From Escherichia coli (lineage in GTDB: Bacteria > Pseudomonadota > Gammaproteobacteria > Enterobacterales > Enterobacteriaceae), in assembly GCF_024502345.1 (NCBI RefSeq), contig NZ_JALDNN010000001.1: a stretch of DNA of 64,000 nucleotides; one strand, written 5' to 3'. Positions within the stretch are counted from its first letter, which is position 1; every line of letters starts with the position of its first letter. Made by a program: the position numbers and the translations under genes. Below the pieces are notes generated by a model. The model was not told where the DNA came from. It did not search any database and worked only from the letters and a program-made list of their open reading frames with translations. This document shows, one piece after another, positions 4,916-19,318 of the stretch.

Positions 4916-4947
4916 AGGCTCCGTTTGGGAAACGGAAAATATTGTAC
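4916..4947. repeat. outer 32 nt of a Tn3-family 38-bp terminal inverted repeat (copy a), split by an IS110-family insertion
   Basis: AGGCTCCGTTTGGGAAACGGAAAATATTGTAC resembles the intact IR at 15751-15788 (GGGGTCCGCTTGGAAAACGGAAATTATCCCAC read from outside); the remaining GTTAAG follows the IS at 6311-6316. Confidence 0.6.
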
Positions 4948-6310
4948 TATAAGGGCTTCCCCGGCATGTCAACGCCGGTTTTATAGTTTCTGTCTGCTCG
5001 TCAGTAAAATAAAGGGGAGAGACTGCGGTACTATAAACGGCCATGATAAATCGTTATCGATTCGGGCCCTGATGAAAGACGCGCGTGAGGTTCTTGTTCG
5101 TTAAGCGGATACGTATATCCTGTACAATAGCCAGATAGGCCTCACGGGGTCTAACCCTTTTTCATCAACGAGTTGCAGGTCAGATGGTTATACTGCTTTG
5201 TGCTTTAGCTGGCTGAGTACAGCCTGAAATCATCACCGTAATGCAACGATGCCCAGCACAGCCTCGCGTTTTTGGCGGCGATGGCTACAACAGCCCGCCA
5301 GTACCCCCTGCGCTCAACCAACTTACAAACCCAACGGCTGAATGAGTCAGTCCTTTTCTCTGCACCAATCAAAACCGAACGGGCCCCCTGAACCAGAAGC
5401 GTTCGCAGATATGAATCGCCCGCTTTCGTTATTCTGCCAAGCTTTGATTTTCCGCCACTGCTGTACTGTGATGGTGTAAGTCCCAGCCAGGCTGCCAGTT
5501 GGCGTCCATTCTTAAAATCATGGGCATTACCGATACTGGCGACCAGCGCACAGGCCGTTGTGGGACCAATCCCTTTCAGTTCCATCAGTCGTTGGCTGCG
5601 GTGATCCGTTTTTGCCATGCGGGACAGGATCCGGTCATATTCAGCGATGTTATCTTCAATGCGATTAATGTGTTCCAGCAGATCATCAACGCATTGCTGA
5701 ACCTGAAGCGGCAAAGAATTCTTCTGTTCAGAAACGATGTGGCGCAGGGCATCTGTACTTTGTGGAGCGATGACGCCGAATTCAGATATCAAACCTCTTA
5801 ATCGGTTATATGTTGCTGTTTTCTCTTCGATAAAACCTTGTCTGGTACGGTGTAGACATTGCATCGCCTGCTGGCTCTCATCCTTCACTGGCACGAACCG
5901 CATATGCGGGCGACGGACAGCCTCACAAATAGCCTGGGCATCAGCTGCATCATTTTTTCCTGATTTACCGGCCATGCGATATGGCGATACGAACTTTGCA
6001 GCCATCAAACGGGGCTCATGGCCATACTGCCGAAACACTCTTGCCCAGTAATGGGCGCCTGAGCACGCCTCCATCCCGATAACACAGGGAGGCAGGCTTG
6101 CAATTAACTCAGGAAGTGCAGCACGCGATACTTTAGGTTTAACCAGAACAGTTTTTCCATTTTGATCAACGCAGTGAACAGCGAACACATTTTTAGCAAG
6201 ATCGATACCGACAGTAGTGATAGTCATAACGAATCCCTCCAGGGCTATGTTTACCCCATGATTGCACAAGAGCTAATCAGGCACATATCCAGGGGAAGTC
6301 CCTTCCATTC
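4948..6310 (-). mobile_element. IS110-family insertion sequence, copy A (IS1111 / IS4321-IS5075-like), 1363 bp
   Basis: Bounded by TATAAGGGCTTCCCC (4948-) and GGGGAAGTCCCTTCCATTC (-6310); contains one IS110-family transposase gene; inserted inside a Tn3-family IR with no target duplication. Confidence 0.85.
5205..6227 (-). CDS. IS110-family transposase (340 aa from MTITTVGIDLAKN)
   Basis: N-terminal VGIDLAKN motif typical of IS110-family transposases; the ORF track begins 14 codons upstream, but copy B starts at the MTITTVGID methionine (6225-6227 here). Confidence 0.88.
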   Translation of the reverse strand: MTITTVGIDLAKNVFAVHCVDQNGKTVLVKPKVSRAALPELIASLPPCVIGMEACSGAHYWARVFRQYGHEPRLMAAKFVSPYRMAGKSGKNDAADAQAICEAVRRPHMRFVPVKDESQQAMQCLHRTRQGFIEEKTATYNRLRGLISEFGVIAPQSTDALRHIVSEQKNSLPLQVQQCVDDLLEHINRIEDNIAEYDRILSRMAKTDHRSQRLMELKGIGPTTACALVASIGNAHDFKNGRQLAAWLGLTPSQYSSGGKSKLGRITKAGDSYLRTLLVQGARSVLIGAEKRTDSFSRWVCKLVERRGYWRAVVAIAAKNARLCWASLHYGDDFRLYSAS

Positions 6311-6350
6311 GTTAAGATCAAATTTTAACCTGTAATACACTGATAAATTA

Positions 6351-6382
6351 GGGGCCCGCTTGGAAAACGGAAAATATCCTAC
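6351..6382. repeat. outer 32 nt of a Tn3-family 38-bp terminal inverted repeat (copy b), split by the second IS110-family insertion
   Basis: GGGGCCCGCTTGGAAAACGGAAAATATCCTAC, then the IS, then GTTAAG at 7746-7751 running directly into the tnpA remnant; together these reconstruct a 38-bp IR closely matching 15751-15788. Confidence 0.75.
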
Positions 6383-7745
6383 TATAAGGGCTTCCCCGAA
6401 CAGTCAACGCCGGTTTTTAATTTCTGTCTGTTCATCAATGAAAGGCAAGGGATAAGACTGCGCTACTATAAACGGTCATGCTGAATCGCTAGTGATTCGG
6501 ACCCTGATGAAAGACGCTCGTGAGATCCTCCTTCGTTAATCGGATAGTGATATCCAGTAGGATATGCAGATACTTCTCACGGGGGTCTAACCCTTTACCA
6601 TCAACAATTTACAGTTCAGTTACTACTCAGTTAAATTTTTCATGTTGTTGAATACAGTCTGAAGTCATCGCCGTAATGTAATGATGCCCAGCACAACCTC
6701 GCATTCTTGGCGGCGATTGCAACGACAGCACGCCAGTATCCCCGCCTACCAATCAACGAGCAGACCCAACGGCTAAACGGGTCCGTTCTATTCTCTGCCC
6801 CTACCATTACAGAACGGGCTCCCTGGACCAGTAGGGTTCGCAGATAGGCATCACCCGCTTTTGTTATCCTGCCAAGCTTTGATTTTCCGCCACTACTGTA
6901 TTGTGATGGCGTTAGCCCCAACCAGGCTGCCAGTTGGCGCCCGTTCTTAAAATCATGGGCATTGCCAATACTGGCGACCAGCGCACTCGCTGTGGTGGGC
7001 CCAACACCTTTCAGTTCCATTAACTGCTGGCTGCGATGATCTGTTTTGGCCACACGAGATAATACCCTGTCATATTCGGCGATTTTCTCTTCAATATTAG
7101 TGACATGTGTCAATAGATCATCAATGCACAGCCTAACCTGTACTGGCAGAGTTTCCTTCTGGTCAGAAACAACATGACGCAGAGCATCAGTGCTTTGTGG
7201 GGCAATAACCCCGAATTCAGATATCAGGCCCCGAAGACGGTTATACGTTGCTGTTCTTTCCTGGATAAATCCCTGTCTTGTCCGATGTAAGCATTGCATT
7301 GCCTGCTGGCTTTCGTCTTTGACTGGTACAAAGCGCATATGCGGCCGCTGCACTGCCTCACAAATAGCTATTGCATCAGCTGCATCATTTTTCCCGGTCT
7401 TACCCGCCATGCGATAGGGTGAGACAAATTTCGGAGCCATCAACCGGACATCATGGCCATACTGCCTGAATAATCTTGCCCAATAGTGGGCACCCGAGCA
7501 GGCTTCCATTCCAATGACACAGGGAGGTAAACCTGCGATGAGTTCAGAAAGTGCTGCACGCGACACCTTGGGTTTAACCAGAACAGCTTTACCATTTTGG
7601 TCAATGCAGTGAACAGCAAACACATTTTTAGCAAGATCGATACCGACAGTGGTGATGGTCATAACGAATCCCTCTGGGTCAATGTTTATCCTATGATTGC
7701 ACGAAAGTTAATCAGGCGCATATCTAGGGGAAGTCCCTTCCATTC
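6383..7745 (-). mobile_element. IS110-family insertion sequence, copy B, 1363 bp
   Basis: Same termini and same length as copy A; the transposase is about 88 percent identical to copy A by eye; inserted at the equivalent position of a second IR copy in the same orientation. Confidence 0.85.
6640..7662 (-). CDS. IS110-family transposase (340 aa)
   Basis: Intact ORF, a paralogue of the copy A transposase. Confidence 0.9.
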   Translation of the reverse strand: MTITTVGIDLAKNVFAVHCIDQNGKAVLVKPKVSRAALSELIAGLPPCVIGMEACSGAHYWARLFRQYGHDVRLMAPKFVSPYRMAGKTGKNDAADAIAICEAVQRPHMRFVPVKDESQQAMQCLHRTRQGFIQERTATYNRLRGLISEFGVIAPQSTDALRHVVSDQKETLPVQVRLCIDDLLTHVTNIEEKIAEYDRVLSRVAKTDHRSQQLMELKGVGPTTASALVASIGNAHDFKNGRQLAAWLGLTPSQYSSGGKSKLGRITKAGDAYLRTLLVQGARSVMVGAENRTDPFSRWVCSLIGRRGYWRAVVAIAAKNARLCWASLHYGDDFRLYSTT

Positions 7746-7746
7746 G

Positions 7747-8088
7747 TTAAGCCTGTTTTTTATACAGACTGCTATCTACTGAGCGTAACGAACGGTATTT
7801 TCCCTGTCCCAGCTTGAGGTTTGTTCGCCAGACGTAATCTCCACTCAAGTTGATGTGTTCCCATCCCAGCGGGGACAGATGAGAAATCAGCTGTTCATTT
7901 AGTGGGATCCCTTTTCGCTTCAGAGAATCTATGGCTCTTTCTATATATACCGTATTCCACAGTGAGATCGCCGCAGTCAGCAATGTCAGCCCGCTGGCCC
8001 GGTAGCTCTGGTTTTCCAGTCCCCGGTCTCTGATTTCCCCCAGCCGGTGCATAAAGACTGCTCGCGCTATAACAGCGCCCCCCCCCAC
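7747..8088 (-). pseudogene. tnpA: Tn3-family transposase TnpA, C-terminal remnant (about 110 codons)
   Basis: [53 protein letters not shown]...LYKKQA parallels the C-terminus of the intact TnpA at 12771-15755; ends next to the split IR; similarity is lost upstream at a poly-C tract near 8078-8086. Confidence 0.8.
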
Positions 8089-8267
8089 GAATCCCTGAAT
8101 AACCTGACACCGGAAGAGTACCGGCTGATGGCTGAAACCCCGGAAATCTCAAAAAGTGCGCGGAACTAAATCGGGTGACATAAAAAATTTCGAATGCTAA
8201 GAGGGCCGGCAGTCACCAGTAAAACCATAATGAGTAACTGCCTGATTAAAGTTGTGGGGATGTATAA

Positions 8268-9044
8268 TTAAAGATTAACGACTTCACCATCTTCAGGGAT
8301 ACTAACCTGGTCAGTAATCTTATTAAGATCTACATACTCATGGATTTCTTTTCGGGTTTGTCCAAAATGATTTACAGATTCCATATGTGTGGAAATAATA
8401 TGTGCTTTTGGAAGTATGTTATGTGTCCTTAGCACATCTTCTTTACCCATGATAATAGGCCCCAGATTTTCCACCTGCGCATATCCCGTATTCAGGATAA
8501 CGATATCAGGCTGATATTTATGCATAACCTGCTCTACATCATTAATCCAGATAGTATCACCAACTATATAGATAGTCTTTTCGCCATCAGACTGGAGAAT
8601 AACCCCCATAGCTTCACCTAATAGCTCTGCCGCAGCGGGGTTGCGGAATGCCTCATCACTACCATGTTGACAGTGAGTTGGAATTAAGCGAATTCCGGCG
8701 TATTCAATTTCATTATCAAGAACTTGTAGGTTAATAAATCCATCGCGGGCCAGTTCGTTTTTGTCTTCAGTATTCTGTACAAAAATAAGCATATCGCGAG
8801 GGATCAGCGCCCGGGCAGCAGCATCCCAGTGGTCATCATGCGTATGAGTAACAATAATAGCATCTACATCAATAACCTCTGATACCGGTAGAGGTAAGTC
8901 AACAAGAGGGTTCCGTAAATGGCGGTTCATCGTCAATGGAAAACCAGGGAATGAACCTTTTGCTGATAACATCGGGTCAATCAGGATTTTTTTTCCTGCA
9001 TAATGAATAATTGCAGTGGCGTTACGGATCTGATGAAATTTCAT
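8268..9044 (-). CDS. MBL-fold metallo-hydrolase (258 aa)
   Basis: Metal-binding motif THTHDDHWD (HxHxDH); no N-terminal signal peptide, so not an obvious secreted class B beta-lactamase. Confidence 0.8.
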   Translation of the reverse strand: MKFHQIRNATAIIHYAGKKILIDPMLSAKGSFPGFPLTMNRHLRNPLVDLPLPVSEVIDVDAIIVTHTHDDHWDAAARALIPRDMLIFVQNTEDKNELARDGFINLQVLDNEIEYAGIRLIPTHCQHGSDEAFRNPAAAELLGEAMGVILQSDGEKTIYIVGDTIWINDVEQVMHKYQPDIVILNTGYAQVENLGPIIMGKEDVLRTHNILPKAHIISTHMESVNHFGQTRKEIHEYVDLNKITDQVSIPEDGEVVNL

Positions 9045-9114
9045 AATAGAACTCCAGTTCTGTATTAACAGAACACAGTAAGAGGATTAATTTACTTTCC
9101 AGCTGGCAGAAGTT

Positions 9115-9896
9115 TTATATCGCTTCTGAACCCCTGAATGTTTTTCGCCATACGGACGGCGATACGCCAAATTTTGCGATAAACTTTTCCCGTAAAGATG
9201 TTGCGGAACTAAAACCAACCAGCTCAGATACCTTCTGTACAGAGTGGGCTGTAGATTCCAGTAATACCTGCGCTTCTCTCAGACGCTCCGTTGTTAACCA
9301 GTCAACCAGTGTCATGCCCGTCGACTGTCGGAAGCGGCGTGTAAAGGTTCGTCGGCTCATGCTAACGACTTCACAAAGTTCATCCAGCGTCCAGCGTCTG
9401 GCCAGGTCCTGGCGCAGCGTTTCAACCAGCAGAATTATCTGGCGATCCTTTGTTGCAGATGGAAAAGGCATCTGAATATACTGAGCCTGTCCCCCGTCCC
9501 GATGAGGCGGGATCACCATTCGCCTTGCTATCTGATTGGCAATATTGCTCCCGTACAACTCCCTGACCAGATACAGACAGCAGTCCATACCCGCACCTGT
9601 ACCGGCAGAAGTAATAATATTATCGTCAGCTACATAGAGCGCATTCATATCCAGGTGGGTATTCGGAAACCGTGACTGAAAATCACTCTCATACAACCAG
9701 TGTGTCGACGCGTTTCTTGCATCCAGTAGTCCTGAATAGGCCAGAGCATAGGCACCAAGGCACAAACCCACAATGGTGGCATTATGCTGTGCAGCTTCCC
9801 GGAGTGCTTCCGTTAACTGTGGCTCCGGTACAATGTCAGGCGATGGCCAGAAAGGAACTATAACCATGTCAGCAGTACGTAACACCGATAAGTCAT
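9115..9896 (-). pseudogene. GlxA-type regulator (DJ-1/PfpI-like domain + AraC-family HTH), C-terminal part of a gene split by the IS2-like element
   Basis: DJ-1-type nucleophile region IVGLCLGAYALA followed by an AraC-type HTH (RRTFTRRFRQSTGMTLVDWL); the frame stays open upstream to the IS boundary at 9896. Confidence 0.8.
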
Positions 9897-9987
9897 TGAT
9901 GTAGCCCCCTGAAACACCGGACAGTAGCTGTATCTCCAGATAAGAGATAGGCTTGAATATATGTCTAACACTAACGCCAATTTTGAG

Positions 9988-10356
9988 ATGACCGGGATCC
10001 TGTTAGGGCAAGAAGTCCGTAAACGTAAAACTCCTCAGGAGAAGATCGCCATTATCCAGCAGACGATGGAGCCGGGTATGAATGTCTCCCATGTCGCCCG
10101 CCTGCATGGTATCCAGCCCAGCCTGCTGTTTAAGTGGAAGAAGCAATATCAGGAAGGCAGCCTCACCGCCGTTGCGGCTGGAGAGGAAGTCGTTCCTGCT
10201 TCTGAGCTTACTGCTGCTCTGAAGCAGGTCCGGGAGCTTCAGCGCCTTCTGGGCAAGAAAACGATGGAAGTTGAGATCCTGAAAGAAGCCGTGGAGTACG
10301 GTCAGTCGCGAAAATGGATAGCGCACGCGCCCTTGTTGCCAAAGGACGGGGAATAG
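9988..10356 (+). CDS. IS2-like orfA (InsC-like)
   Basis: [25 protein letters not shown]...[18 protein letters not shown] parallels IS2 InsC; start taken at the internal ATG 9988 rather than the ORF-track start 9961. Confidence 0.85.
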
Positions 10357-11195
10357 CCATGGTCAGCCGGACCATGGGCGTGTCGCGTGCGCAACTGTCA
10401 CTGCGGATTAACCGTTCTGCCGACTGGCAGGACAGGCGCTGTAACCGGCGTAATGAAGAAGCAGACGCAGAAATACTGTCGGCTATCCTCAACATTATCA
10501 GCGATATGCCGAGTTATGGTTATCGACGCGTGTGGGGCATCCTGCGCAAGCAACGTCGCACAGAGGGACAGCCACCTGTGAATGCCAAACGGCTTTACAG
10601 GATAATGAGCGAGCATAACCTGTTGTTGTTGCATCACAAACCAGAGCGACCGAAGCGTGAACATAAGGGCAAGATAGCGGTGGCAGAAAGCGATATGCGC
10701 TGGTGTTCAGATGGCTTCGAGTTCGGCTGCGACAACGGCGAAAAACTGCGGGTAACGTTCGCGCTGGACTGCTGCGACCGTGAGGCCATAGACTGGGCAG
10801 CAAGCACGGGAGGCTATGACAGTTCGACCGTGCAGGATGTGATGCTGAGGTCGGTGGAAAAGCGCTTCGGCGACAGGTTGCCCGACACAGCGGTGCAGTG
10901 GCTGACGGATAACGGTTCAGCGTATACCGCGTATGAAACGCGGAGGTTCGCGAGAGAGCTGAATCTGGAGCCCTGCACAACAGCGGTGAGCAGCCCGCAG
11001 AGTAATGGCATGGCCGAACGGTTCGTGAAAACGATGAAAGAAGACTATATCGCGTTCATGCCAAAACCGGATGTGAGAACAGCACTGCGAAACCTTGCAG
11101 TAGCGTTCACGCATTACAATGAAAACCACCCGCACAGCGCGCTGGGATATCACTCCCCGAGGGAATACCGGCGGCAGCGGACATCGTTAACTTAA
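10314..11195 (+). CDS. IS2-like orfB (InsD-like, integrase-core domain)
   Basis: MDSARAL...[26 protein letters not shown]...WLTDNGS...[13 protein letters not shown] parallels IS2 InsD. Confidence 0.88.
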
Positions 11196-11232
11196 GATAC
11201 AAAAGCTGTTCGGAGATGGAGGGTCAAGATCA

Positions 11233-11419
11233 ACACCGATAAGTCATATTCCGGTGTAATATGCATACCATGTGAGGTTTTTATAGTCTTTCCCTGCACG
11301 GAGCATAAAACAACGTTAAATAATGAATGGTCCGGGATAATATCTGCAAAAATTGCCAGGGGTACGGAGAGATGAAATGCACTGATATCATCGGTTATCA
11401 AAATGGCTATCTTTTTCAT
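11233..11419 (-). pseudogene. GlxA-type regulator, N-terminal 61 codons (MKKIAILITDDISAFHLSVPLAIF)
   Basis: Start codon at 11417-11419 with a GGAGAG ribosome-binding site; the frame ends inside the IS2-like element; the sequence continues in 9115-9896 after a 15-16 bp direct repeat. Confidence 0.75.
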
Positions 11420-11438
11420 TTCATACTCTCCTGTAAGA

Positions 11439-11843
11439 TTAACTAATCTGACGTACGATATCGTTATAATCAAAGTGCGCACGTTTTTCCTTAATTTTAC
11501 CGCCTTCAATAGTCAGCAGCATCATCAGAGAAATACGTACTTTTTTCCCGGTTGGTTTATATCCGTGCATTTCATTATTGTGGATACCTTCAAAAACAAC
11601 ATAAGCTACGACTTTATCCGCTTCACTGATAAGAACTTCAGGCTTCATGCTGAAGCCCCGGAATCCATCAAGTGTGGCAGTTTCAGATGCGATAAAACCG
11701 TCAACTCCATGAATGGGGTTATCTATCTGTGAATAGAAAACAAAGTCACTGGAGCAAAGTGATTTAAGGGTTAAAAAATCATAACCTTCAAGAGCCTGAT
11801 AAAAATCATGTACAAGTTTTTCATTTGAGTTTTTCATGGTCAT
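11439..11843 (-). CDS. SnoaL-like / NTF2-fold protein (134 aa)
   Basis: Small ORF 19 bp upstream of the regulator gene on the same strand; sequence pattern resembles SnoaL/ketosteroid-isomerase-like proteins (family call is tentative). Confidence 0.6.
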   Translation of the reverse strand: MTMKNSNEKLVHDFYQALEGYDFLTLKSLCSSDFVFYSQIDNPIHGVDGFIASETATLDGFRGFSMKPEVLISEADKVVAYVVFEGIHNNEMHGYKPTGKKVRISLMMLLTIEGGKIKEKRAHFDYNDIVRQIS

Positions 11844-12035
11844 TCACCTTTTTGTCTGGAGTAAGGACATTCTACGTGGTGTACACAAGTGAGTGCGAGT
11901 GACCAAAAAGACATTAATCAACATGATTGGGCCATTGTTATGAGAAAAAGGCTCCCCCCGCTGGGTTTCAACATCTGCCTGTGTTAAGCCCGCTCATAGC
12001 ACATAGCATAACGTCCAGCTGAGAACTCACGGTCA

Positions 12036-12611
12036 TTACTGTCCTGCCTTTACCCTGAGTATGGTTTGCCGGGTTGTATTAAACTCCCGAGCAATGGCGC
12101 TGATACTGGCCCCGGCCTTAATACGTGCAATCACAGAAAGTTTCTGTTCTTCATTCAGTGTTGAAGGACGGCCAAACCGCTTTCCGGCAGCTTTCGCTCT
12201 CGCAATACCAGAGTGCGTACGCTCAAGAAGCAAATCCCTTTCAAATTCTGCCACAGCAGAGATGACCTGCATGGTCATTTTTCCTGCCGGGCTTGTCAAA
12301 TCAACTCCGCCCAGCGCGAGGCAGTGAACGCGAATATCTGAAGCAGCCAGTTGTTCAACCGTTTTTCTGATATCCATCGCATTGCGCCCCAGTCGGTCGA
12401 GTTTAGTAACAATCAGCACATCACCATTTTCCATGCGATCAAGCAGCCGGATAAATCCGGGGCGTTCGCTGGCAGCAACCGAACCACTGATATGCTCCTC
12501 AATCAGTCGCTGGGGTCTGATGGCAAAACCCGCCGTTTCAATTTCACGCCGCTGATTTTCTGTAGTCTGTTCCAGAGTGGAGACCCGGCAATAAGCAAAA
12601 ACTCGTGACAT
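12036..12611 (-). CDS. tnpR: serine recombinase / resolvase TnpR (191 aa from [15 protein letters not shown])
   Basis: N-terminal catalytic serine motif (YCRVST) and C-terminal HTH; divergent from tnpA; start taken at the internal ATG 12609-12611 rather than the ORF-track start. Confidence 0.88.
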
Positions 12612-12770
12612 AGGAAACTTTCCGTACGTAAAGGATGTCCGAATTATAGCGTGTGTACGAAATAAATTTCGCTTACTTTCGGACATACTGTCAGCTTAGT
12701 GTACGAAACCGACCGGTTTCGGTCACAGCGAACAAATAACAGATGAAAACTATACGCGAGGGAGGCATTT

Positions 12771-15755
12771 ATGCCACGGCGACAGATACTGAGCAGCGAA
12801 GAGCAGGAACGCTTACTGGTTATACCAGATGATGAAATTATTCTGACCCGAATGTGTTTTCTGAACGAACCGGATATTGCGCTCATTAATAAGCACCGAA
12901 GGCCAGCGAATCGCCTGGGCTTTGCTGTATTACTCTGTTATCTGCGTGGACCTGGATTTATTCCGGACAAAAGCAGTGCTCCTCACAATGGCGTTGTATC
13001 CAGGGTTGCTTCCCGACTGAAACTTCAGCCTGATTTATGGCCGGAATATGCATCCAGAGAGCAAACCCGCTGGGAACATCTGACCGAACTTTATCGCTAC
13101 CTGGAACTATCCCCGTTCAGCCGGTCAATGCAAAAAGACTGTATCCGTCATCTGCACCCCTATGCCATGCGAACTGACAAAGGATTTATGCTGGCGGAAG
13201 AAATGCTCAGCTGGCTACATAACAATAATGTTATTTTCCCTTCTGTTGAAGTGATCGAACGGACGCTTGCCGAAGTCGTCACGCTCGCTAACAGATCGGT
13301 ATTTTCGACACTTACCGCGCAACTGGAAAAGCAGCATAAATCAGCACTCGACAGCCTGCTCATATCAGAGGGTGAACAACCTTCCCGTCTGGCATGGCTG
13401 CTACAGCCTCCGGGTAAAATAAACGGTAAAAATGTGCTGCAACATATCGACCGGCTTAATTCCATCGCTGCGCTGGGGTTGCCTGATGGTATTGCACTTT
13501 CCGTTCACCAGAACAGGTTGCTTAAACTGGCGCGTGAGGGCCGGAAAATGAGCAGCAGGGACCTGGCAAAATTCACCGATGTCAGACGTTACGCTACGCT
13601 GGTTTGTATAATAACAGAGGCCAGGGCCACCCTGACTGACGAAGTGATTGATCTGCACGAGCGTATCCTGGGTAGTCTGTTCAGCAGGGCAAAACGCACG
13701 CAGGCCGAACGGCTCCAGCAAACGGGAAAGCTTATTCAGAGCAAGCTGAAGCAGTACGTTACCGTCGGGCAGGCGTTACTTAACGCCAGAGAATCCGGGG
13801 AAGATCCCTGGACTGCAATAGAAGATGTCCTTCCCTGGCAGGAATTCATCAACAGCGTGGAAGAAACGCGGTTTCTTTCCCGTAAGGGCAATTTCGACGC
13901 GCTTCATCTGATCACCGAAAAATACAGTACGTTGCGTAAATATGCCCCGCGTATGCTGTCAGCATTGCAGTTCATGGCGACACCTGCGGCGCAGGCGCTC
14001 AGCGATGCGCTGGACACCATAACGGAAATGTACCGTAAACAACTTCGTAAAGTGCCGCCATCAGCGCCAACAGGGTTTATCCCTGAAAGCTGGCGAAAAC
14101 TGGTGCTCACGCCTTCAGGCATCGACCGCAAGTACTACGAGTTTTGCGTACTGAATGAACTCAAGGGTGCATTACGTTCCGGTGATATCTGGGTAAAAGG
14201 ATCGCGCCGCTACAAAAATTTTGATGATTATCTCATCCCGACTGCTGAGTTTGAGAAATCCCGACATAATGACCAGTTACAGTTGGCCGTTCAGACCGAT
14301 AGCCAGGCATACCTTCAGGCCCGTATGACTCTTCTTGCATCTCGGCTGGAAGAAGTTAACGCGATGGCGCTTGCCGGTGATTTGCCCGATGTAGATATCT
14401 CAGATAAAGGCGTAAAAATCACTCCACTGGAGAACAGCGTTCCTTCAGGTGTTTCGCCCTTTGCAGATTTGGTCTATGGCATGCTTCCCCATCCGAAAAT
14501 TACGGAGATACTGGAAGAAGTTGATAGCTGGACGGGATTTACGCGTCACTTCGCGCACCTCAAAAATAATAACGTCAGACCAAAAGACGGAAGACTGTTG
14601 CTGACCACCATTCTGGCTGACGGCATCAACCTTGGGCTGACAAAAATGGCGGAATCCTGCCCTGGGGCCACAAGATCGTCACTCGAAGGTATTCAGACAT
14701 GGTACATCAGGGATGAAACTTATTCAGCGGCACTGGCCGAGCTGGTCAACGCACAGAAAGAGCGGCCTCTGGCCGCATTCTGGGGCGACGGGACAACATC
14801 GTCGTCAGACGGGCAGAACTTTCGGGTAGGCAGTCACGGACGTTATGCCGGTCAGGTCAATCTTAAATATGGTCAGGAGCCGGGCGTGCAGATTTATACG
14901 CATATCTCAGACCAATACAGCCCGTTCTACGCCAAAGTGATCAGCCGGGTGCGCGACTCAACCCACGTGCTTGATGGCCTGCTGTACCATGAAAGCGATC
15001 TGGAAATTACCGAGCATTACACCGATACCGCAGGCTTCACTGAACATGTTTTCGCCCTGATGCACCTGCTGGGATTCGCTTTTGCGCCAAGGATCCGTGA
15101 TCTTCATGACAAGCGGCTGTTTATTCATGGAAAGGCCGAGCGCTATCCGGGGCTTCAGTCTGTCATATCAACAACCTGCCTGAATATCAAAGACATTGAG
15201 TCGCACTGGGATGAGGTATTGCGCCTGGCAACCTCGATTAAGCAGGGGACAGTCACCGCATCACTGATGATGAAAAAGTTAGCCAGTTACCCAAAACAGA
15301 ATGGACTTGCCAAAGCGCTGAGAGAGATTGGCCGCATCGAACGGACACTATTTATGCTGGACTGGTTCCGTGATCCCGGTCTGCGCCGACGCGTGCAGGC
15401 GGGGCTGAATAAGGGTGAGGCCCGTAATGCCCTTGCGCGAGCGGTCTTTTTGCACCGTCTGGGTGAAATAAGGGATCGTGGGCTGGAGAATCAGAGTTAT
15501 CGCGCCAGCGGGCTGACATTACTGACAGCAGCGATCACGTTGTGGAACACGGTATATATAGAAAGAGCTATTGAGTCACTAAAACGAAAGGGTATCCCGA
15601 TAAATGAGCAACTGGTCTCTCATCTTTCTCCCCTGGGCTGGGAACATATCAATCTGAGTGGAGATTACGTCTGGCGTAATAATCTTAAGCTGGGATCCGG
15701 AAAATACCGCTCATTACGTACAGTCGATACCGCTTTGTACAAAAAACAGTCTTAG
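12771..15755 (+). CDS. tnpA: Tn3-family transposase TnpA (994 aa)
   Basis: Size and sequence pattern typical of Tn3-family TnpA (about 1000 aa); the stop codon lies inside the terminal IR. Confidence 0.93.
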   Translation: MPRRQILSSEEQERLLVIPDDEIILTRMCFLNEPDIALINKHRRPANRLGFAVLLCYLRGPGFIPDKSSAPHNGVVSRVASRLKLQPDLWPEYASREQTRWEHLTELYRYLELSPFSRSMQKDCIRHLHPYAMRTDKGFMLAEEMLSWLHNNNVIFPSVEVIERTLAEVVTLANRSVFSTLTAQLEKQHKSALDSLLISEGEQPSRLAWLLQPPGKINGKNVLQHIDRLNSIAALGLPDGIALSVHQNRLLKLAREGRKMSSRDLAKFTDVRRYATLVCIITEARATLTDEVIDLHERILGSLFSRAKRTQAERLQQTGKLIQSKLKQYVTVGQALLNARESGEDPWTAIEDVLPWQEFINSVEETRFLSRKGNFDALHLITEKYSTLRKYAPRMLSALQFMATPAAQALSDALDTITEMYRKQLRKVPPSAPTGFIPESWRKLVLTPSGIDRKYYEFCVLNELKGALRSGDIWVKGSRRYKNFDDYLIPTAEFEKSRHNDQLQLAVQTDSQAYLQARMTLLASRLEEVNAMALAGDLPDVDISDKGVKITPLENSVPSGVSPFADLVYGMLPHPKITEILEEVDSWTGFTRHFAHLKNNNVRPKDGRLLLTTILADGINLGLTKMAESCPGATRSSLEGIQTWYIRDETYSAALAELVNAQKERPLAAFWGDGTTSSSDGQNFRVGSHGRYAGQVNLKYGQEPGVQIYTHISDQYSPFYAKVISRVRDSTHVLDGLLYHESDLEITEHYTDTAGFTEHVFALMHLLGFAFAPRIRDLHDKRLFIHGKAERYPGLQSVISTTCLNIKDIESHWDEVLRLATSIKQGTVTASLMMKKLASYPKQNGLAKALREIGRIERTLFMLDWFRDPGLRRRVQAGLNKGEARNALARAVFLHRLGEIRDRGLENQSYRASGLTLLTAAITLWNTVYIERAIESLKRKGIPINEQLVSHLSPLGWEHINLSGDYVWRNNLKLGSGKYRSLRTVDTALYKKQS

Positions 15756-15788
15756 CGTGGGATAATTTCCGTTTTCCAAGCGGACCCC
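15751..15788. repeat. Tn3-family 38-bp terminal inverted repeat (tnpA-proximal end)
   Basis: Reverse complement reads GGGGTCCGCTTGGAAAACGGAAATTATCCCACGCTAAG; starts with GGGG and ends TAAG, as in Tn3-family IRs. Confidence 0.85.
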
Positions 15789-16103: not shown

Positions 16104-16571
16104 CTATTTTATAGGTAACCCCTTAAAAGATTTAATCTCCTTGATACTGAAACTGGTATTCATCTCCTTTATATTCCCAATTTTTCGTATCCTTATCATT
16201 GATACGTTGTGAAAATCATCCATATCTTTTACTACAAGATGCAGAAGATAGTCGTATCTTCCGGAGATATTATGACAGGCAATTACATTATCAATCTTCA
16301 TTATTTCTGCCTCAAAATATTGCATGCACTCCTCGGAATGAAGATCTAATGTAATATTCATGAATGCATAAAAATTGTATCCAAGGCTTTTCGGTTCGAT
16401 AAAAGCCCGATAGTTTTTTATCACTTCCTGCTCTAAAAACTTTAGCCGTTTCCAGCAGGCTGGAGGGGAAAGAAAAACACGCTTGGCAATCTCAGCGTTG
16501 TTCAGCCTGCCATCTTCCTGCAAGAAATTTAAAATCTGCATATCAACTTTGTCAAGCTTTACCATGTTCAA
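16104..16571 (-). CDS. Lrp/AsnC-family transcriptional regulator (155 aa)
   Basis: N-terminal HTH (DKVDMQILNFLQEDGRLNNAEIAKRV) and C-terminal RAM-like region; divergently arranged to the transporter gene across an AT-rich 200-bp spacer. Confidence 0.85.
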   Translation of the reverse strand: MNMVKLDKVDMQILNFLQEDGRLNNAEIAKRVFLSPPACWKRLKFLEQEVIKNYRAFIEPKSLGYNFYAFMNITLDLHSEECMQYFEAEIMKIDNVIACHNISGRYDYLLHLVVKDMDDFHNVSMIRIRKIGNIKEMNTSFSIKEIKSFKGLPIK

Positions 16572-16773
16572 CCTCCTGTGATAGCAATCATATTCGTAAT
16601 TTTATGAAATAAAATTAACCAAATCAATAAAAACAAGAAATAAGATAAGCCATAAATTGTAAAAATAGTTAATTTTAAAAAGATAATTAATATACTTACC
16701 GGGTAGAATCATTTATGAAGTGCAAACCTCTGTAAATAATTACCATAAAATATCCTCACACAGGAATATACCT

Positions 16774-18081
16774 ATGACCATATTGGAACAGAACATCGAC
16801 AGGGCCTCATTATCGCCAGAAGAGTGGAAAAAACTAACCCGATTTGACAGTACAGATGTAGGATGGATTATCATAAGCATAGGTATGGCTATCGGCGCCG
16901 GGATTGTGTTTTTACCGGTCCAGGTGGGGCTTATTGGATTGTGGGTATTCCTGCTTTCTTCCATCATTGGTTATCCGGCCATGTACCTGTTTCAAAGATT
17001 GTTTATCAATACGCTGGCAGATTCACGAGAGTGTAAAGACTATCCCGGTGTCATCGAGGGCTATCTGGGAAAAAACTGGGGAATGCTCCTCGGTCTGCTC
17101 TACTTTCTCATGCTGGTCATCTGGATATTCGCCTACCCTACGGCGTTGACTAACGATACAGCGTCGTATTTACACACGTTTGGCTTAACTGAGGGTCTTT
17201 TATCAGAGAACCCTTTCTATGGCCTAATTCTTATTACATTTCTTGTGCTTATTGCTTCACGTAGTGAAGAGCTCTTGTTCAGGATTTCCTCTTTCATGGT
17301 GTTATCAAAACTGGTGGTAGTGCTTATCCTGGGGTTGATGATGGTCAGCATGTGGGACCTCTCCAAAAACATCGGTTCATTCCCTTCTTTTAGTATTTTA
17401 ATCAAAAACGCCATTATCACCTTGCCATTTACGTTGACATCAATCCTGTTTATTCAGTCTTTGAGTCCGATGGTAATTTCATATCGTGCAAAAAACAAAT
17501 CTATAGAAGTGGCAAGATATAAAGCGCTAAGAGCAATGAATATCGCTTTTGGTACACTATTCATCGTTGTTTTCTTTTATGCATTATCATTCACTTTCGC
17601 CCTCGGTCACGATGAAGCTGTCAAAGCCTACGAGCAAAATATTTCAGCACTGGCTATTGCCGCACAGTTTATTGAAGGAGATGCAGCAAAGTATGTGACG
17701 CCAGTTGGTGTTGCATTGAATATCTTTGCCCTGATGACTGCCTTCTTCGGCGTTTACCTCGGGTTCAAAGAGGCTGTACAGGGACTGGCGATGAACGCAT
17801 TGACCCGTTTTATACCTTCAGAGAAAATCAATAAAAAAACGCTTAATGTTGGTATTGTCATTTTCACTATTGCCATCGCCTGGGGGGCAATCGTTCTGAA
17901 CCTGCCGGTTCTGCTATTCACCTCAATCTGCAGCCCCATTTTCGGCATTGTTGGTTGCTTAATCCCTGCTTATCTGGTTTACAAGGTACCCTCCCTTCAC
18001 CGATATAAAGGGTTTTCTCTGTATCTGATCATCTTTACTGGCATCCTGCTCTGTATTTCTCCGTTCCTGAAATTCATTTAA
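16774..18081 (+). CDS. HAAAP-family amino acid transporter (TdcC/SdaC/TyrP-like), about 435 aa
   Basis: Multi-span membrane protein with N-terminal W...IGAG..FLP motif; start taken at ATG 16774 (AGGA ribosome-binding site upstream) rather than the GTG at 16720. Confidence 0.82.
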   Translation: MTILEQNIDRASLSPEEWKKLTRFDSTDVGWIIISIGMAIGAGIVFLPVQVGLIGLWVFLLSSIIGYPAMYLFQRLFINTLADSRECKDYPGVIEGYLGKNWGMLLGLLYFLMLVIWIFAYPTALTNDTASYLHTFGLTEGLLSENPFYGLILITFLVLIASRSEELLFRISSFMVLSKLVVVLILGLMMVSMWDLSKNIGSFPSFSILIKNAIITLPFTLTSILFIQSLSPMVISYRAKNKSIEVARYKALRAMNIAFGTLFIVVFFYALSFTFALGHDEAVKAYEQNISALAIAAQFIEGDAAKYVTPVGVALNIFALMTAFFGVYLGFKEAVQGLAMNALTRFIPSEKINKKTLNVGIVIFTIAIAWGAIVLNLPVLLFTSICSPIFGIVGCLIPAYLVYKVPSLHRYKGFSLYLIIFTGILLCISPFLKFI

Positions 18082-18112
18082 ACAAACATATATGTCCAAA
18101 GAAGGTTAAATT

Positions 18113-19318
18113 ATGAAGTACAATTTTGATGAAATTATCAACAGAAAAAATACTGATGCCCTGAACTACGATGGGTGGAGACAATATATATTCAAGGCCG
18201 ACAAGAGTGCCCGCTTTGACTTTAAGGACGATGAATTTGTCAGAATGTGGGTCGCTGATATGGATTTTGCGACACCTCCGGAAATCCTTGCAGCGATTCA
18301 GGAGAGGCTTGATAAAAAAATACTCGGTTACACAAAAGTTTACGATGATGAGTACTATCATATTTTCCACAACTGGTGCCAGAGACGCTATGACTGGAAT
18401 ATAGATACCACAGAGATCGTGCTTTCACCGGGCATTATTCCTGCACTTAACCGTCTGGTACCGTTACTGACACAACAGGATGAAAGTGTGTTGATCAATA
18501 CACCATCCTATACGCCGTTTAAGCAGGCTGGAGACTATAGCTATCGTCGAGTGATCTGTTCTGATTTGCTGAAACAGGACAATGAATACATTATTGACTT
18601 CAACGATATGGAGAAAAAACTAACCGATCCTTCTCTAAATATTAAGCTGTTCATTTTATCCAATCCGCAAAATCCAACCGGGATGGTCTGGTCAGAACAA
18701 GAATTAATGAGAATGGGGCAGTTGTGCCTTAAAAACAATGTCTGGATCATTTCAGACGAAATACATTGTGATTTACTGAGAAATGGGATCAATCATATCC
18801 CGATGGCAAAACTGTTCCCAGACACTGATAAGATCATCACCTGTATGGCACCAAGCAAAACCTTTAATCTTGCCGGAAATCTGATGTCCCATATTTTTAT
18901 TAAAAATGAAAAGGTCAGAAAAGAATGGTTACGTCTTTATGATGAGTTTCTTTCACCACTGAGTCTGGCTGCGACCAAAGCGGCCTGGTCCCGGTGCGAC
19001 GAGTGGCTGGAACAATTAAAACACTATCTTGATGATAACTTCAGACTGGTAGAAAAATTTACCCAGGAACACTTTCCTGACGCAAACTTTAAAATTCCCG
19101 ATGCAACTTATCTGGCATGGATAAATATTGAGAAATACCTGCCACCGCAGGTAGACAGACAACAGCTTTCTCTCTATTTCGCCAACCAGACGGGAATACT
19201 GCTTGAAGGCGGGAACATGTTTGTAAGCAATGGAGAGGGTTACATACGGATTAATCTTGCCTGTCCACGCGCCGTGATACAAGAAGGATTAGAGAGAATA
19301 AGAAAAGCACTGAAATAG
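18113..19318 (+). CDS. PLP-dependent C-S lyase, MalY/PatB family (401 aa)
   Basis: Shares motif pattern with MalY as recalled (DMDFATPP, SNPQNPTG, ISDEIH, SKTFNLAG with the putative PLP lysine); a GAAGG ribosome-binding site precedes the ATG. Confidence 0.82.
   Translation: MKYNFDEIINRKNTDALNYDGWRQYIFKADKSARFDFKDDEFVRMWVADMDFATPPEILAAIQERLDKKILGYTKVYDDEYYHIFHNWCQRRYDWNIDTTEIVLSPGIIPALNRLVPLLTQQDESVLINTPSYTPFKQAGDYSYRRVICSDLLKQDNEYIIDFNDMEKKLTDPSLNIKLFILSNPQNPTGMVWSEQELMRMGQLCLKNNVWIISDEIHCDLLRNGINHIPMAKLFPDTDKIITCMAPSKTFNLAGNLMSHIFIKNEKVRKEWLRLYDEFLSPLSLAATKAAWSRCDEWLEQLKHYLDDNFRLVEKFTQEHFPDANFKIPDATYLAWINIEKYLPPQVDRQQLSLYFANQTGILLEGGNMFVSNGEGYIRINLACPRAVIQEGLERIRKALK

Follow-up and report, generated by a model that had tools for sequence, protein, structure and literature searches.

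The three-gene block

The window analyzed here is a stretch of 64,000 nucleotides (64 kb) of Escherichia coli DNA from contig NZ_JALDNN010000001.1. At positions 8268–11843 it harbors three genes on the minus strand, which encode a SnoaL-fold protein, a transcriptional regulator of the DJ-1/AraC type, and a metallo-β-lactamase (MBL)-fold hydrolase that resembles SaxA, an enzyme acting on isothiocyanates (ITCs). The regulator gene is split by an insertion sequence (IS), and a conserved element, referred to below as the sax box, precedes the first gene. The features of the block are the following.

8268–9044, minus strand: SaxA-like MBL-fold hydrolase, 258 amino acids, predicted ITC hydrolase (match to PDB 6BRM; Pfam Lactamase_B_2, E = 6e-13)
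9057–9074, minus strand: hairpin-forming inverted repeat GTTCTGT-TAAT-ACAGAAC in the regulator–hydrolase spacer, just 5′ of the hydrolase ribosome-binding site
9115–9896, minus strand: 3′ part of the regulator gene, codons about 58–317, including one copy of the target duplication (9882–9896); 99.8% nucleotide identity to the intact allele in record L001
9897–11232, plus strand: IS2-like element of the IS3 family, 1,336 bp, with ends TGAT...ATCA, orfA at 9961–10356, and orfB at 10314–11195
11233–11419, minus strand: 5′ part of the regulator gene, codons 1–63, with the ATG at 11419 and the second copy of the target duplication (11233–11247), placed by the open reading frame (ORF) map and the L001 alignment
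11439–11843, minus strand: SnoaL-fold (NTF2-like) protein, 134 amino acids from the longest ORF (Pfam SnoaL, PF07366, E = 1.1e-24)
11891–11940, minus strand: sax box, with its core TGGCCCAAT at 11934–11926 (position-weight-matrix match, 32.9 bits)

The ORF map finds the three same-strand genes where an earlier note, made from the letters of this DNA alone, had located them, and the families that it had named (Pfam Lactamase_B_2, DJ-1_PfpI with HTH_18/HTH_AraC, and SnoaL) are correct. Its reading of the genes as an operon is supported by the short spacers, which measure 19 and 70 bp in the intact allele, by the order SnoaL–regulator–hydrolase, which is retained in copies whose hydrolase has diverged to 88% and 76% identity, and by the fact that a single conserved element precedes the first gene only. 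A search for uninterrupted homologous operons showed that the three genes do co-occur elsewhere, which removes one of the two grounds on which the note could have been refuted. The other falls as well, the SnoaL frame being no spurious call, given its Pfam score and an AlphaFold2 model with a pLDDT of 92.5.

A scan of positions 7600–12800 for consensus promoters and terminators gave no helpful result in the vicinity of the operon, and its sites were fewer than those in shuffled sequence. The stem of the spacer hairpin is kept in record L004 through a two-sided change (GTCCTG...CAGGAC) and is absent in L006, which in a three-sequence spacer alignment is weak evidence. The hairpin could be an element for transcript processing or stability, or an operator.

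The hydrolase

By alignment, the hydrolase belongs over its full length to the SaxA subfamily within the MBL fold, and every metal ligand is kept. Its best match in a PDB sequence search is 6BRM, the "putative metal-dependent isothiocyanate hydrolase SaxA" (E = 6.7e-79, residues 1–256 against 1–257), to which it is 47.5% identical globally. The uncharacterized hydrolase 3RPC comes second (E = 6.7e-69), with no others near. In a family alignment of 21 sequences, none of the ligands H67-x-H69-x-D71-H72, H127, D163, and H220 varies, and they line up with those of SaxA. Two other assignments were tried and rejected on their NCBIfam scores, namely UPF0173/PRK00685 (70 against a cut-off of 144 bits) and the UlaG lactonase (20 against 306 bits).

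SaxA enzymes from Pseudomonas syringae and Pectobacterium hydrolyze ITCs to the amine and carbonyl sulfide, and a fungal homolog that is just 20% identical still has ITC hydrolase activity (PMC7303113). In addition, saxA from plasmids of gut bacteria of Delia radicum, the cabbage root fly, makes E. coli degrade phenylethyl-ITC (PMC12710311). ITC hydrolysis is the best-supported prediction for the function of the window enzyme. Since the hydrolase falls in the SaxA subfamily, the module looks like a sax-type plant-toxin detoxification unit and not like a unit for the catabolism of amides or quaternary amines. This also proposes a substrate, which the earlier note had left unnamed.

An alternative is that the enzyme acts on something other than an ITC, such as a lactone, an ester, or another heterocumulene or electrophile, in concert with a SnoaL "ester cyclase", and that its likeness to SaxA reflects subfamily ancestry. 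Several observations weigh against ITC hydrolysis in this way. The solved SaxA shares only 47.5% identity with the enzyme, which leaves room for a different substrate, the assayed enzymes being other members of the family. Members of the family are also frequent among marine bacteria and nitrifiers without obvious exposure to plant ITCs and occur in other bacteria not associated with plants; because of this distribution, the native substrate range of the family may exceed plant ITCs. The third gene varies among loci (isochorismatase, S-adenosylmethionine (SAM) methyltransferase, or SnoaL), and the RefSeq names are merely generic. On the other side, the sole functionally named relatives are ITC hydrolases, the activity persists in the fungal enzyme at 20% identity (PMC7303113), the UlaG and UPF0173 scores lie far under their cut-offs, and the contexts examined hold no polyketide or lactone pathway genes. 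A non-ITC substrate is thus rated unlikely, while keeping an appreciable share of the probability.

The regulator and its pairing with saxA

The intact regulator allele (L001:9016–9969, on plasmid pLD39-1) encodes 317 amino acids with DJ-1_PfpI and HTH_18/HTH_AraC domains according to Pfam. The architecture of a DJ-1/PfpI domain joined to an AraC-type double helix-turn-helix is found in the intact alleles of other records, and the window gene, split after about codon 62, can yield no intact protein. RefSeq names the protein "GlxA family transcriptional regulator". In NCBIfam, its C-terminal part scores 286.7 bits with FtrA, and the runner-up for the regulator is GbdR, at 126.7 bits against a cut-off of 480. 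Assignment to the FtrA equivalog (NF006902) was rejected because the intact allele reaches 309.8 bits against a cut-off of 425. With regulators of the GlxA, FtrA, and GbdR type it shares the domain architecture, the length of 317 amino acids, and a nucleophile-elbow cysteine. It differs from them in falling below the FtrA and GbdR equivalog cut-offs, in having an ITC-hydrolase-like gene as its conserved partner, and, in the window, in being broken by an IS.

The pairing of regulator and hydrolase extends well beyond the window. A scan of one genome per species gave 80 loci with a SaxA homolog, which together with records L004, L006, and L008 make a sample of 83. A full-length regulator homolog (42–51% identity) lies within 1.5 kb of the saxA homolog in 64 of these 83 loci, including those of Pectobacterium (L033 and L036). 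It is placed downstream on the same strand in 37 loci and divergently upstream in 20, and this type of regulator adjoins saxA homologs across Gamma- and Betaproteobacteria. In the saxCAB cluster of P. syringae, saxC is the regulator gene and saxB is uncharacterized (PMC6922522, PMC12903958). The window regulator is SaxC-like by its gene position beside saxA.

Of 65 regulator sequences, 63 keep Cys103, the nucleophile-elbow residue of the DJ-1-like domain, 58 keep C163, and 57 keep C164. The nearest solved relatives of this domain are isonitrile hydratases. The conserved Cys103 is compatible with covalent sensing of electrophiles, without proving it.

Some points about the regulator weigh against the sax interpretation or qualify it. 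The protein is FtrA-like only, and the SaxC of P. syringae is known here from its description only. The conserved cysteine of the DJ-1 domain is probably general to this class of regulators and not specific to ITC sensing. The role as activator, as opposed to repressor, is inferred from family behavior only. Within this class of DJ-1/AraC proteins, regulators such as GbdR work as activators.

The earlier note had proposed, on the basis of the regulator, that the unit might serve amine or amide catabolism. On this reading, the regulator would answer a nitrogenous nutrient that the two enzymes feed into metabolism. The GlxA label in RefSeq and the second place of GbdR among the NCBIfam matches speak for this idea, which is nevertheless very improbable. 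The GbdR score is far under its cut-off, no transporter, dehydrogenase, or oxidase genes lie beside the cassette in any lineage, and the conserved partner of the regulator is a SaxA-like hydrolase.

The SnoaL-fold partner

The ATG at 11837 is favored as the start of the SnoaL gene by a better-placed ribosome-binding site, which gives a protein of 132 amino acids in agreement with RefSeq. Foldseek aligns the AlphaFold2 model to SnoaL-like structures with template modeling scores of 0.85–0.87; the matches of that search are generic SnoaL, SnoaL2, and LEH folds only, with no functional clue. TIGR02096 was rejected as the family (46 bits against an NCBIfam cut-off of 97). The subfamily has invariant residues Y15, Y37, D41, E54, Y81, S105, and E119-K-R-A-H123.

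The genomic context is more telling. Distant homologs (47–50% identity, mostly from marine metagenomes) lie directly downstream of a SaxA-like gene in four of four look-ups. These SaxA-like genes are 44–50% identical to the window hydrolase, and a DJ-1/AraC regulator is adjacent in three of the four. In an unbiased clustering of neighbors, the SnoaL subfamily stands next to saxA in 7 of the 83 loci. By its contexts, the subfamily is shown to be a dedicated partner of SaxA-like genes, found almost only beside them, and no hitch-hiker. Polyketide genes are absent from the roughly 12 contexts examined, in which the SaxA-like hydrolase is the constant neighbor, so the annotation "ester cyclase / polyketide metabolic process" is not supported.

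Other third genes recur beside saxA, namely an isochorismatase in 9 loci, including Pseudomonas (L059 and L061), and a SAM methyltransferase in 9 loci of nitrifiers. The isochorismatase neighbors (9 of 83) fit SaxB, which we take to be an isochorismatase-family protein. In the nitrifiers, which comprise Nitrosospira, Nitrosovibrio, Nitrospira, and Nitrosomonas (L026, L048, L053, L063, L067, L069, L073, L078, and L080), the saxA homolog precedes a gene for a putative SAM-dependent methyltransferase of about 264 amino acids, as judged from its sequence, and the DJ-1/AraC regulator is absent at most loci. Because ITCs are known nitrification inhibitors, this saxA–methyltransferase arrangement may be a separate variant of the system.

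A conserved upstream element

The sax box emerged from the regions 250 nt upstream of the 83 saxA homologs, in which the 8-mers TGGCCCAA, TGGCCCGA, and TTGACCCG are enriched (21, 18, and 12 loci, respectively, as compared with 0–1 in controls). The core TG[GA]CCC[AG] occurs within 300 nt upstream of the saxA homolog in 62 of the 83 loci, with 0.094 expected from background. The consensus from 56 sites is TTGGCCCgATnncATCGatnaTTGnCctTtnGgCCA. The element spans about 36 nt, TTGGCCCgAT..ATCG..TTGnCC..GGCCA, and consists of two half sites resembling TTGGCCC at a distance of 21 nt, as would be typical of AraC-family dimers.

The box goes with the regulator. It is present at 52 of 64 loci with an adjacent regulator and at 4 of 19 without one (Fisher p = 2.6e-6), a test that takes loci as independent and ignores their shared ancestry, which tempers its weight in favor of a regulator–box link. 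Where the regulator lies downstream, the core is mostly 92–102 nt 5′ of the hydrolase start (range 92–148), and where the regulator is divergent, it is at −196 to −254. The saxA sites of Pectobacterium score 37 bits with the sax-box matrix. In the diverged three-gene copies of L004 and L006, the box scores 32.5 and 32.9 bits and precedes the SnoaL gene.

A matrix scan of the entire window returned a single match above 12 bits, the 32.9-bit site at 11940–11891 on the minus strand. Its core lies 97 nt upstream of the better-supported SnoaL start at 11837, which equals the distance before saxA elsewhere. The site is followed by a candidate activator-dependent promoter with a −10 hexamer TAGAAT at 11874–11869 and, 17 nt before it, a poor −35 that abuts the box. 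Since the only match in the window is upstream of the SnoaL gene, it argues for one regulated operon, and we read the arrangement as a single, probably activator-dependent promoter that would drive SnoaL, regulator, and hydrolase. A simple sigma-70 scan, which gave no consensus promoter upstream of the SnoaL gene, counts against this reading.

A hydrolase homolog that is 67% identical stands alone at 6001–6777 in L008 and L009, with neither an adjacent regulator nor a SnoaL gene. A sax-box core is still present 106 nt upstream of it and points to either trans control or an operator that is a relic.

The IS2-like insertion

That the regulator is interrupted by an IS2-like element, as the earlier note had it, proved real, and alignment with the uninterrupted copy in L001 yields its exact borders. 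The insertion is clean, with a 15-bp target duplication ACACCGATAAGTCAT at 9882–9896 and 11233–11247 that covers regulator codons 58–63. Neither 5,426 complete E. coli genomes nor 72,556 plasmids contain the junction between IS and regulator; because no record has it, the insertion is a private and recent event. Different insertions, IS903B and ISKpn26, are found in the cassette in two other records.

The element shares with IS2 (IS3 family, IS2 group) the two overlapping ORFs, the programmed frameshift, the TG...CA ends, and the best NCBIfam matches, which are IS2 TnpA and TnpB. It differs in that its scores, 201 and 416 bits, fall short of the respective IS2 cut-offs of 229 and 597 bits, and in its duplications of 15–16 bp. 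Copies that are 99.9–100% identical occur elsewhere in E. coli, annotated as "IS3 family transposase, programmed frameshift". IS3-family elements usually make duplications of 3–5 bp. In the window, comparison with the empty site gives 15 bp in place of the short duplication of the family and the IS2 group, and four of five other E. coli copies with 100% identity (L090, L092, L093, and L094) have 15, 16, 15, and 16 bp, respectively, the fifth having none. A literature search found no reports of IS3-family elements with 15-bp duplications.

The insertion truncates the regulator to 62 native residues, and read-through into the IS would give a product of 75 amino acids. The element is antisense to the operon and puts 1.3 kb of foreign DNA between the sole recognizable regulated promoter and the hydrolase gene. 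Because the IS destroys the regulator and separates the hydrolase from the regulated promoter, the window cassette is most likely silent or uninducible, with a predicted loss of both induction and hydrolase expression.

The opposite outcome has also been considered, in which the hydrolase remains active and the cassette is constitutive in this strain, either because the regulator is a repressor whose loss derepresses the operon or because a separate promoter lies in the regulator gene or the 70-bp spacer. Constitutive resistance frequently arises by way of IS insertions in regulators, the palindrome in the spacer could be an operator or a processing site, and an unrecognized internal promoter might still express the hydrolase. 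Even so, this outcome appears improbable. No minus-strand promoter-like site facing the hydrolase was found at 9045–9960, the sole sax box is upstream of the SnoaL gene, and regulators of this class, as exemplified by GbdR, are activators. Moreover, with the IS in antisense orientation, an outward promoter at its right end faces away from the hydrolase.

The Tn3-family transposon

The mobile-cargo context proposed earlier is likewise real, and the cassette is the passenger of a Tn3-family transposon. The description of the block as bounded by Tn3-family remnants holds on the left, where a tnpA 3′ remnant and an inverted repeat are found, and fails on the right, where an intact resolvase gene and a full-length transposase gene follow; a single transposon thus encloses the block as its passenger DNA. 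The components in the window are listed below.

6351–6382, strand not assigned: outer 32 nt of the left terminal inverted repeat, cut off from the inner part by an IS110-family element at 6383–7745
7746–8088 (about), minus strand: what is left of a second Tn3-family tnpA (3′ part), sharing 81% identity with the 3′ end of the resident gene; together with the inner 6 nt of the left repeat (7746–7751) it makes up the left end of the transposon
8237–11934, minus strand: captured passenger segment, 2,346 bp not counting the IS; 89.9% nucleotide identity to L004:4462–6807, with homology ending at the borders
12036–12611, minus strand: tnpR, serine resolvase, 191 amino acids, intact (ORF map)
12771–15755, plus strand: tnpA, Tn3-family transposase, 994 amino acids, full length (NCBIfam NF033527, 1,209.9 bits against a cut-off of 500)
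15751–15788, strand not assigned: right 38-bp terminal inverted repeat, from sequence comparison

The transposase, serine resolvase, and terminal inverted repeats of about 38 bp are those of the Tn3 family. The copy on pAA-ST131 (L003) is a transposon of 6,723 bp whose inverted repeats measure 38 bp (GGGGCCCGCTTGGAAAACGGAAAATATCCTACGTTAAG) and whose target duplication is the 5-bp ATATT. Its order is left repeat, 355-bp tnpA 3′ remnant, hydrolase, regulator, SnoaL, tnpR, res, tnpA, and right repeat. In the window, the flanks AATTA and AGGGA form no 5-bp duplication, and the left repeat is split by the IS110-family element (NCBIfam IS110, 356.8 bits). The passenger has a G+C content of about 43%, as compared with 50.6% for the transposition genes, and the homologous L004 copy sits outside any transposon context.

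As in Tn3 and Tn5393, tnpA and tnpR are divergent and the cargo follows tnpR, and the pAA-ST131 copy has the 38-bp repeats and the 5-bp duplication. In contrast to those transposons, the cargo is a predicted plant-toxin detoxification operon and not an antibiotic-resistance gene, and the left end derives from the tnpA remnant of a different Tn3-family element. A backbone with 97% identity in tnpR–tnpA is present on a Klebsiella pneumoniae plasmid, NZ_CP043599.1 (L102, 1–2070), with genes for OsmC, TetR, and a carboxymuconolactone-decarboxylase-family (AhpD-like) protein downstream of tnpR. Because these genes take the place of the sax cassette, the transposon lineage swaps stress-related cargo at the position downstream of tnpR.

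The IS110-family element is one of a tandem pair (about 4948–6310 and 6383–7745), both on the minus strand and 80% identical to each other in nucleotide sequence. Each is inserted after nucleotide 32 of a Tn3/Tn21-type 38-bp inverted repeat. One of these repeats is the left end of the sax transposon, and the other is a degenerate repeat (4916–4947 plus 6311–6316) 34 bp away in the same orientation. The pair matches the known targeting of such repeats by IS4321 and IS5075.

Proposed mechanism and relation to known sax systems

Taken as a whole, the block is probably (with a probability of about 0.65) a three-gene ITC detoxification operon that travels as the passenger of a 6.7-kb Tn3-family transposon and that is IS-disrupted and likely silent in this strain. 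In the intact form, the regulator would bind the conserved element of about 36 nt and activate the weak promoter that abuts it. The inducing signal would probably be an electrophile such as an ITC, which may be sensed through Cys103 of the DJ-1-like domain. The SnoaL–regulator–hydrolase transcript would then supply the SaxA-like enzyme for the predicted hydrolysis of ITCs (R–N=C=S) to amine and carbonyl sulfide, and the SnoaL-fold partner would perform an accessory step.

A bolder version of this proposal is speculative and, in all its parts together, doubtful. According to it, the SnoaL protein would be an unrecognized second ITC-detoxification enzyme, acting for example on a thiocarbamate intermediate or another glucosinolate breakdown product. 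The regulator would be a direct covalent ITC sensor in which Cys103 attacks the carbon of N=C=S, much as isonitrile hydratases act on isonitriles, and which acts via the conserved operator TTGGCCC-N14-TTGnCC. With all of this carried by the Tn3-family transposon, inducible resistance to ITCs from the diet and from food preservatives would pass among the Enterobacteriaceae of the gut.

By sequence, the module belongs with the sax systems (SaxA plus regulator) for ITC detoxification of plant pathogens and insect-gut bacteria. It shares the MBL-fold subfamily of its hydrolase with saxCAB of P. syringae pv. tomato DC3000 and with the SaxA of Pectobacterium and of the plasmids from the Delia radicum gut, and these systems likewise pair the hydrolase with a gene for a transcriptional regulator. 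The conserved upstream element is shared with the saxA loci of Pectobacterium, and carriage of saxA on plasmids is already known from Delia radicum gut bacteria (PMC12710311). Nevertheless, there are several differences. The third gene encodes a SnoaL-fold protein and not SaxB as in saxCAB. The gene order is SnoaL–regulator–hydrolase, whereas in the sax loci examined the regulator is usually downstream of saxA or divergent upstream. Finally, the carrier is a Tn3-family transposon and the hosts are Enterobacteriaceae from animals, humans, and water.

Distribution and genomic neighborhood

The intact cassette is present in 37 of 72,556 PLSDB plasmids, all at least 98.4% identical. Among complete E. 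coli genomes it occurs in 75 of 5,426 (about 1.4%), in 57 chromosomal and 20 plasmid places, the isolates being from animals (chickens, pigs, and turkey), from humans, and from river water and seawater. Carriers of the transposon are found in E. coli, Salmonella, Klebsiella, and Enterobacter. RefSeq gives the three products generic names ("ester cyclase", "GlxA family transcriptional regulator", and "MBL fold metallo-hydrolase"). A literature search of incomplete coverage found nothing that links saxA or ITCs to Tn3 or transposons in E. coli, nor any work on the three RefSeq product names together or on SaxA in human-gut Enterobacteriaceae.

The window is an E. coli chromosomal island, which from about 26.4 kb onward matches the pqqL–dosP–gadBC region. 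The first 26 kb or so form an IS-dense mosaic, inserted in the E. coli chromosome beside these genes, with IS5, IS1, and IS3 remnants, the two IS110 elements, the Tn3-family transposon, IS5/IS903-like elements, and a gene resembling dimethyl sulfoxide/selenate reductases. Directly to the right of the transposon, positions 16104–19318 encode an Lrp/AsnC-type regulator, a serine/threonine-type transporter, and a PatB-family C–S lyase (360 bits; cut-off, 340). IS5-family elements flank these genes, which make up a further small mobile module of the island. At a similar chromosomal coordinate the sax cassette is also found in many other E. coli; in L095, the one genome examined, it lies near hipBA–ydeP.

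In Salmonella enterica GCA_038634495.1 (L006, 2205–9174), the three-gene cassette, with a hydrolase that is 76% identical, has as neighbors genes for an isochorismatase (SaxB-like), OsmC, and a second DJ-1/AraC regulator, as well as a CoA-disulfide-reductase/rhodanese fusion and an ArsR-type regulator. This electrophile- and sulfur-stress neighborhood may be relevant to the carbonyl sulfide or sulfide that arises from ITCs.

Significance

In a 2023 paper, the mechanism by which sax genes are regulated was stated to be still unknown (PMC10098062). The upstream element, together with the cysteine-bearing sensor domain of the regulator, would provide a directly testable model of sax regulation, for which the window copy, a naturally inactivated allele, is a possible negative control.

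About 1.4% of complete E. coli genomes thus carry a predicted ITC hydrolase that is transposon-borne, probably inducible, and so far generically annotated. ITCs, among them sulforaphane, allyl-ITC, and phenylethyl-ITC, are toxins by which plants defend themselves, and they also occur as bioactive compounds of the diet and serve as food antimicrobials against E. coli. The cassette is a candidate for the conversion of ITCs to amines by gut enterobacteria and for tolerance to ITC-based food preservation.

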